IMG/VR virus record: IMGVR_UViG_3300032315_000774
Span: 1-64,000 of that record
Reading direction: 5' to 3' (one strand)
Length of the DNA: 64,000 bases
Origin: a virus
The translations under genes and the position numbers were made by a program. This document shows positions 63,190-63,236 of the stretch, piece after piece. The notes beneath the pieces are model-generated. The model saw only the letters and a list, made by a program, of their open reading frames with translations. It searched no databases and had not been told where the DNA came from. Each line of letters begins with the position of its first letter. Within the stretch, counting starts at the first letter, position 1.

Positions 63190-63236
63190 TCGGTAGACAC
63201 GATGTGTTTCGGCCTTCTGGCCATCTTCAGTACCGA
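63190..63236 (-). ncRNA. Type I hammerhead ribozyme
   Basis: UCGGUA CUGAAGA U GGCC AGAA GGCC GAAA CAC AUC GUG UC UACCGA. Confidence 0.85.

Follow-up and report, generated by a model that had tools for sequence, protein, structure and literature searches.

A Probable Type I Hammerhead Ribozyme with an Extra U in a Phage tRNA Array and a Candidate Non-tRNA RNA Downstream of It

The minus-strand tRNA array of an uncultured freshwater phage carries, directly behind a tRNA-Ala gene, a 47-nt motif that is very probably a hammerhead ribozyme by descent and that, as far as its sequence tells, probably cuts. The motif is complete, it is statistically significant against simulated sequence, it is recognized by covariance models built from other viral hammerheads, and its layout recurs in other viral contigs. 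On balance, we favor the reading that it is a genuine type I hammerhead, of a phage subclass with an extra U in the core, that punctuates the tRNA operon for a non-tRNA RNA.

Results

A complete type I hammerhead on the tRNA strand

The window that we analyzed covers the first 64 kb of an IMG/VR virus record, a single linear contig of 137,165 bp with 62% GC and a CheckV completeness estimate of ~61%. Read on the minus strand from 63236 down to 63190, the site resolves into the elements listed in Table 1. The conserved hammerhead core (C3 U4 G5 A6 N7 G8 A9...G12 A13 A14) is present and is surrounded by the three helices that a hammerhead requires, with stem II closed by G10.1-C11.1, and the required A15.1-U16.1 pair is followed by a residue other than G at H17. 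The stems have 6, 4, and 4 Watson-Crick pairs, and all 14 pairs as well as every core position are intact, with no mismatch. A first reading of the window, made from the sequence only, had proposed a complete type I core here, and direct inspection of the letters bore out all of its elements at their coordinates; the cut at the GUC triplet, which it had placed between 63196 and 63195, was also derived correctly, type I geometry applied to the sequence giving a predicted cut between C63196 and U63195.

Table 1. Features of the hammerhead locus, in coordinates of the window
Feature	Position	Strand	Sequence, pairing or basis
Type I hammerhead ribozyme, 47 nt, one extra U (63223)	63190..63236	-	sequence, descriptor, null simulation, models R1/R2, MFE
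Stem I	63236-63231 with 63195-63190	-	UCGGUA with UACCGA; 6 Watson-Crick pairs
Core C3-A9	63230-63224	-	CUGAAGA; sequence
Extra U between A9 and G10.1	63223	-	U; sequence
Stem II	63222-63219 with 63214-63211; loop 63218-63215	-	GGCC with GGCC, loop AGAA; G10.1-C11.1 = G63222-C63211
Core G12-A14	63210-63208	-	GAA; sequence
Stem III	63207-63204 with 63200-63197; loop 63203-63201	-	ACAC with GUGU, loop AUC; starts A15.1-U16.1, C15.2-G16.2
C17	63196	-	A63207 pairs with U63197, then C63196; triplet GUC
tRNA-Ala(UGC)	63237..63310	-	ARAGORN 63237-63310; Rfam tRNA 63238-63310, 69.2 bits
Predicted 3' trailer left on tRNA-Ala, 42 nt	63197..63237 plus C63196 (63237-63196)	-	type I geometry on sequence
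Predicted 3' cleavage product, 152 nt, non-tRNA, four hairpins	63044..63195	-	MFE
tRNA-Leu(GAG), next tRNA downstream	62967..63043	-	ARAGORN; Rfam tRNA 62969-63042

The 6-bp stem I is plain, with neither bulge nor loop, and no pairing of the AGAA loop with the flanks was evident by eye. With such a stem, the candidate may not cleave fast at cellular Mg2+; other phage type I examples share the plain build of stem I. Stem II with its loop (GGCC-AGAA-GGCC) is one loop base away from those of L298 and L337, two of the other loci that we collected, and the 4-bp ACAC/GUGU stem III recurs in a third, L157.

The one unusual feature of the core is the U inserted after A9. A scan of viral contigs for extra-U cores (CTGANGATGNCC, 3-7 nt, GGNCGAAAC) gave at least 119 stretches with at least 125 matches. 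Among the matches listed, 108 of 125 fold as full hammerheads, and the classes are 88 type III, 20 type I, and 17 unclassified; also among the matches listed, the extra-U hammerheads (L230 onward) lie mostly just upstream of ORF starts. Hammerheads tolerate an extra residue between A9 and G10.1, according to the accessible text of PMC3705267, which describes an extra A at this place in the CChMVd (+) hammerhead (De la Pena and Flores, 2001, via PMC3705267) and a 3- to 4-fold rise in trans-cleavage rate when that A is changed to U. A nucleotide is likewise conserved between A9 and G10.1 in the hammerheads of Penelope-like elements, in the accessible text of PMC4209133. The inserted U is no defect, and the U form is common in phages; the claim of an extra U in an otherwise complete core was confirmed.

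The motif is not expected by chance and folds as a three-way junction

We searched the record with a descriptor composed of the core, an optional 1-nt insert, three perfect stems, the A15.1-U16.1 pair, and H17. Exactly one site in the 137,165 bp matched, 63236-63190, and descriptors for type II and type III hammerheads found nothing elsewhere in the record. As a null, 48 Mb of sequence was simulated (Markov) from the dinucleotide statistics of the record; the descriptor matched it twice with stems of at least 3/3/3 and once with at least 4/3/3, and gave no match at at least 5/4/3 or at the observed 6/4/4 and above. Extrapolated from this simulation, the number of chance matches expected for the whole record is about 1e-4 or less. 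A loose core pattern was uninformative in the window (4 matches vs 2.6 expected).

The MFE structure of the 47-mer is the three-way hammerhead junction, with an energy that is unremarkable (z -1.73; 10 of 200 shuffles were equally stable). Folded together, tRNA-Ala and the ribozyme form the cloverleaf and the hammerhead side by side. In the MFE structure of the full 194-nt spacer, stem I gives way to other pairings, so that cleavage would have to be co-transcriptional.

Covariance models of viral hammerheads recognize the motif

At the gathering score, Rfam 15 called only tRNAs in the window, with no hammerhead at 63190-63236, and even at E≤10 it returned nothing hammerhead-like and no HDV-family match around the site. 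As a control, we ran Rfam 15 on 14 loci of other viral contigs that hold 17 descriptor- or model-defined hammerheads of the form without the extra U, most of them with perfect cores and stems. None of the 17 was called at the gathering score, and the failure of Rfam to report the candidate weighs little for this reason. Rfam thresholds are insensitive to short type I phage hammerheads, which we take to fall under the clan of RF00163.

We built two covariance models from references that were gathered without the candidate. In a complete scan, viral contigs yielded 48 stretches with a T-loop ahead of CUGANGA...CGAAAC, many of which contain full type I hammerheads by the descriptor, and a looser scan gave at least 118. 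Model R1 was made of 8 aligned hammerheads from other viral contigs, 5 of which lie directly behind a T-arm-like motif or a tRNA, and model R2 of 9 extra-U type I hammerheads. In a search of the entire window without filters, R1 scored the candidate at 28.4 bits (E 9e-6) and its runner-up at 11.0 bits (E 1.2); R2 scored the candidate at 43.9 bits (E 2.9e-13) and its runner-up at 13.9 bits, E values being rough owing to a shortened calibration that leaves the gaps in bit score unaffected. The search with hammerhead models that the sequence-only reading had suggested as a check was empty for Rfam at E≤10 and succeeded with both R1 and R2.

Over 66 loci, R1 found 21 hammerheads, 18 of them distinct. 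In the alignment of these matches, 98.4% of the cells pair and changes on both sides are seen in 12 of 15 pairs; its covariation score of 0.828 compares with 0.203 for shuffles and 0.05-0.13 for slid controls. These values are to be read with the fitting of the alignment to the model in mind, which somewhat favors the structure.

The hammerhead lies at the edge of a large gap in a dense tRNA array

The record contains 25 tRNA genes in a minus-strand array that runs from 65473 down to 62815. They are densely packed, with spacings of 0-9 nt at 20 of the 24 junctions, one of 28 nt, and three large gaps of 193, 209, and 262 nt, and the hammerhead forms the upstream edge of the 193-nt gap. The distance from tRNA-Ala to stem I is 1 nt if the tRNA ends at the discriminator A63238, as in the Rfam match, and 0 nt if it ends at 63237, as called by ARAGORN; either way, the claimed position inside the array, behind tRNA-Ala and on the tRNA strand, held. 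A63238 is followed by CUC, meaning that tRNA-Ala has no encoded CCA, and judged by eye CCA follows none of the tRNAs of the array. Neither a CCA-adding enzyme nor RtcB was found in the record, which is itself ~61% complete.

No ORF of at least 100 codons covers the hammerhead site except one spurious frame through the tRNAs. The part of the array within the window has no promoter-like or terminator-like site, consistent with a single transcript of the array.

Several other features of the record were noted. The second large gap, just beyond the window (64189-64397, minus strand; L170:189-397), begins and ends like a tRNA, with an 8-nt acceptor-like pairing and a T-arm separated by ~130 nt; ARAGORN calls part of it a tRNA-Ser(AGA)-like gene at a lowered threshold only, and Rfam gave no tmRNA, intron, or ribozyme match in it. 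The third (64869-65130, 262 nt, minus strand; L170:869-1130), also beyond the window, contains several hairpins and received no assignment from Rfam or ARAGORN. Over the remaining array (64001-67000), Rfam returned tRNAs and sub-threshold noise only. Far from the array, an Rfam tRNA match at 54376-54440 (-) (47.2 bits, model positions 4-67), which ARAGORN does not call, could represent a lone tRNA that is truncated or unusual. The record also encodes a 356-aa fusion of an HNH endonuclease and an RNA ligase (PF09414) at 21979-23049 (-) (phrog_24030, E 2e-107), and we found no evidence linking it to the products of the ribozyme.

Predicted cleavage would leave the ribozyme on the tRNA and release a 152-nt RNA

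Type I hammerheads cut near their own 3' side and leave a 2',3'-cyclic phosphate and a 5'-OH. By this geometry, the cut at GUC would split the polycistronic tRNA transcript such that the whole ribozyme is kept on tRNA-Ala as a 42-nt trailer with a 2',3'-cyclic phosphate end. To mature, the tRNA would still depend on a host endonuclease or exonuclease at its 3' end and, because A63238 is followed by CUC, on the addition of CCA. The earlier proposal of a role like that of theta ribozymes survives in part: the motif would indeed cut the polycistronic tRNA transcript, and the trimming of a tRNA 3' end is probably not what it would accomplish, with the cut lying 42 nt past the end of tRNA-Ala. The features of a theta or HDV-like ribozyme were not found. 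HDV-like ribozymes have a nested double-pseudoknot fold and cleave at their own 5' edge; the candidate folds as a three-way junction, is cut, by prediction, 42 nt from the tRNA, and has no HDV-family match at E≤10.

On the other side of the cut lies a predicted RNA of 152 nt that extends to the 5' end of tRNA-Leu(GAG). Its MFE of -70.2 kcal/mol corresponds to a z of -4.74 and was reached by none of 200 shuffles; the complement of the same stretch has a z of -2.71. No Rfam family matched it at E≤10, ARAGORN found no tRNA in it with relaxed thresholds and with introns and tmRNA allowed, and by eye no T-arm-like element was seen. The spacer that contains it has no paralogue in the record, and no homologue was found. 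The ribozyme would give it a 5'-OH end, and RNase P would set its 3' end at tRNA-Leu; as with self-cleavage in vivo and any role of the 152-nt RNA, we infer this chemistry and this boundary. In analogy to the loci described below, the RNA may be regarded as the cargo of the ribozyme.

The same layout recurs in other viral contigs

We examined the neighbors of 25 hammerheads from other viral contigs. Twelve of them lie no more than 15 nt (-4 to 15) behind a tRNA called by ARAGORN on the same strand, several of these in arrays of 25-32 tRNAs. After 11 of the 12 there is either no further tRNA or a distance of 113-1055 nt to the next one; the layout of these 11 is thus a tRNA, then a hammerhead, then 113 nt or more without a tRNA (or no tRNA at all). 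The twelfth is a type I hammerhead between tRNA-Gln and tRNA-His (L034:1432-1508, +), with stem I strands that overlap both tRNAs and a predicted cut exactly before the extra G-1 of tRNA-His; this ribozyme could make the G-1 5' end of tRNA-His without RNase P. Five further hammerheads (L162, L148, L163, L068, and L143) lie 17-60 nt before an ORF start, in loci where no tRNA was called.

In L044 (+), a hammerhead at 6031-6090, 6 nt after tRNA-Asp, is followed 5 nt past its end by a YrlA Y-RNA-like gene at 6096-6224 (+) (69.7 bits, gathering score 69); the Y-like RNA of this phage tRNA cluster would have its 5' end made by a ribozyme. In L138 (-), an array of 27 tRNAs includes a GOLLD RNA at 6432-6889 (200.3 bits), and a tRNA-adjacent hammerhead at 7268-7324 lies 379 nt upstream of it. 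By eye, L033, L153, and L154 have a conserved unknown RNA in common after the cut, and L139 has an odd tRNA-like gene there. What is constant across the loci is a defined downstream 5' end, not an upstream 3' end, and we prefer on this ground the reading of punctuation for a cargo over that of trimming a tRNA trailer.

Relatives and public sequencing runs

When the phage collection was searched with blastn and megablast, the only matches were to parts of tRNAs; no viral contig contained an exact 25-mer from the ribozyme, and no relatives were found for the neighboring 203-aa ORF. A 607-aa VWA-like ORF, also a neighbor, has relatives in 17 viral and 59 metagenome loci, all at 33%-43% protein identity and often with tRNA arrays at the same place. 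Neither the descriptor nor R1 found a hammerhead in these relatives (17 viral and 56-59 metagenome loci), and Rfam found none in 12 of the relative loci. Such an absence fits the patchy distribution of small ribozymes. In the tRNA region of one distant relative's 363-kb contig, tRNA-Trp is immediately followed by a full-length bacterial class A RNase P RNA (L010:18026-18390, +; 299.5 bits).

Public runs that contain the phage or near strains come from freshwater and freshwater sediment and belong to 8 studies, one of which contributes two metatranscriptome runs; the public data are assembled contigs, which are unable to show RNA ends. A strain variant ~98% identical to the record has 14 differing letters, 11 of them listed outside the ribozyme, with less than one change expected within it. 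One RNA-library contig (X13) spans the cut site; it may be DNA carry-over or uncut precursor, and we gave it no weight. A metatranscriptome contig (X17, record 17) ends exactly at 63195 and overlaps the next contig by 30 letters, which we take to mark an assembly-graph junction and not an RNA end, and it was likewise given no weight.

Discussion

The sequence of events that we propose is as follows. The ribozyme would be transcribed within the minus-strand tRNA operon of the phage, and once the polymerase has passed 63190, tRNA-Ala and the 47-nt ribozyme would fold side by side and the ribozyme would cut after C63196. The upstream product would be tRNA-Ala with the 42-nt ribozyme trailer and its cyclic phosphate, to be followed by host 3' processing and CCA addition. 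The downstream product would be the folded 152-nt non-tRNA RNA with a defined 5'-OH end, whose 3' end RNase P would set at tRNA-Leu(GAG). The ribozyme would thus serve as punctuation for a non-tRNA cargo whose 5' end RNase P is unable to produce. A wider version of this proposal seems to us possible rather than probable, namely that short type I hammerheads are the phages' RNase-P-independent punctuation in any tRNA array with an element that RNase P cannot start, of which the present one makes the 5' end of an uncatalogued 152-nt cargo RNA.

Four alternatives have to be weighed against the punctuation of the operon. It is unlikely, in our view, that the motif lacks a role here, being a portable hammerhead module that hitch-hiked into a gap of the array or is decaying, and cuts slowly or not at all. 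The patchy distribution points that way, no hammerhead having been found in the nearest relatives (17 viral and 56 metagenome loci), as do the single occurrence in the record and the lack of a visible docking element between stem I and loop II; inactive hammerhead-like RNAs have also been reported, in the accessible text of PMC3088659. However, a decaying copy is not expected to keep every core position and all 14 stem pairs intact, nor does decay sit well with a score of 43.9 bits in R2, well above background.

We place little faith in the second alternative, a theta-like processing of the 3' trailer of tRNA-Ala in which a trailer of 193 nt would be shortened to 42 nt for the host 3' enzymes. 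A ribozyme that begins 0-1 nt past tRNA-Ala invites this view, and so does the finding that 12 of 25 hammerheads elsewhere lie within 15 nt behind a called tRNA; that phages attach ribozymes to tRNA 3' ends is known from theta ribozymes (PMC10879173, accessible text). Yet a cut 42 nt off leaves a folded ribozyme and a cyclic phosphate instead of a mature or near-mature 3' end, the five hammerheads of like build in L162, L148, L163, L068, and L143 precede ORFs with no tRNA nearby, and the predicted cut in L034 falls exactly before G-1 of tRNA-His.

It is very improbable that the purpose of the cut is a near-leaderless mRNA. An AUG at 63190-63188, 5 nt past the cut, does open a 31-codon frame (open by eye, with UGA near 63095), and many phage hammerheads lie just upstream of ORFs, but the frame has no ribosome-binding site, runs within very stable hairpins, and at 62% GC is unremarkable in its length. 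A chance match to the hammerhead consensus is hardly credible: scanning very many windows should, by extrapolation from the simulation, yield a few such matches, but for this record about 1e-4 or fewer are expected, the site is on the strand that is transcribed, within a region that encodes RNA only, and two independent models detect it at E values of roughly 9e-6 (R1) and 2.9e-13 (R2).

Phage hammerheads have been known since 2011, and their jobs have mostly been guesses. The candidate and the 12 tRNA-adjacent copies offer a testable job, the setting of 5' ends of non-tRNA RNAs in tRNA operons, and such punctuation elsewhere would span a YrlA-like RNA, unknown conserved RNAs, odd tRNA-like genes, and the G-1 end of a tRNA-His. 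The 152-nt RNA is a candidate new phage small RNA. Two practical gaps also emerge, the thresholds of Rfam 15, which miss short phage hammerheads (0 of 17 controls), and the form with an extra U after A9, which is abundant in viral contigs.

Comparison with known systems

In the literature searched, hammerheads beside phage tRNAs came up in a single sentence of a 2026 paper, whose accessible text places hammerheads "adjacent to tRNAs in bacteriophages" and cites the theta paper for phages (PMC13481778); the main text of that theta paper (PMC10879173) does not contain the word hammerhead, and the supplementary lists of PMC3088659 could hold cases. The setting, a tRNA array with a folded non-tRNA RNA behind the hammerhead, recurs among viral contigs and is undescribed in the literature searched.

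The closest known relatives of the candidate are the type I hammerheads of phages and prophages (Perreault et al., 2011; PMC3088659), which, in the accessible text of that paper, flank genes and process polycistronic RNAs. They share with the candidate the core, the three-stem junction and the open stem I, as well as an intergenic setting in phages and a proposed cutting of long transcripts into units. The candidate differs in that it immediately follows a tRNA within an array of tRNAs, a position not mentioned in the accessible text of PMC3088659, and stands apart from known phage type I hammerheads in scoring below Rfam thresholds, in its extra U, and in its short plain stem I. With the hammerheads of CChMVd (+) and of Penelope-like elements, in the descriptions of them that are accessible, it shares one inserted nucleotide at the same position of the core; those are, however, ribozymes of a viroid or of eukaryotic retroelements, whereas the candidate is a phage ribozyme with a large extra-U population around it.

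The candidate and its surroundings also resemble loci in which a structured non-tRNA RNA lies among tRNAs, as is the case for YrlA (RF02553), GOLLD (RF02032), and phage RNase P RNA, although the 152-nt RNA matches none of these families at E≤10.

Theta ribozymes are a further comparison. They have been proposed to cut the 3' trailer of tRNAs (Kienbeck et al., 2024; PMC10879173) and are reported there, in the accessible text, for gut phages and suppressor tRNAs. Like them, the candidate is a small self-cleaving ribozyme, by prediction, that lies directly 3' of a phage tRNA gene. Unlike them, it is a three-way junction with a predicted cut 42 nt downstream, which would leave the ribozyme on the tRNA, and it comes from a freshwater phage and follows a tRNA-Ala. 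If the proposed role is true, the punctuating hammerheads, of which no description was found in the literature searched, would be the counterpart of theta ribozymes in phage tRNA arrays, acting on 5' rather than 3' ends.
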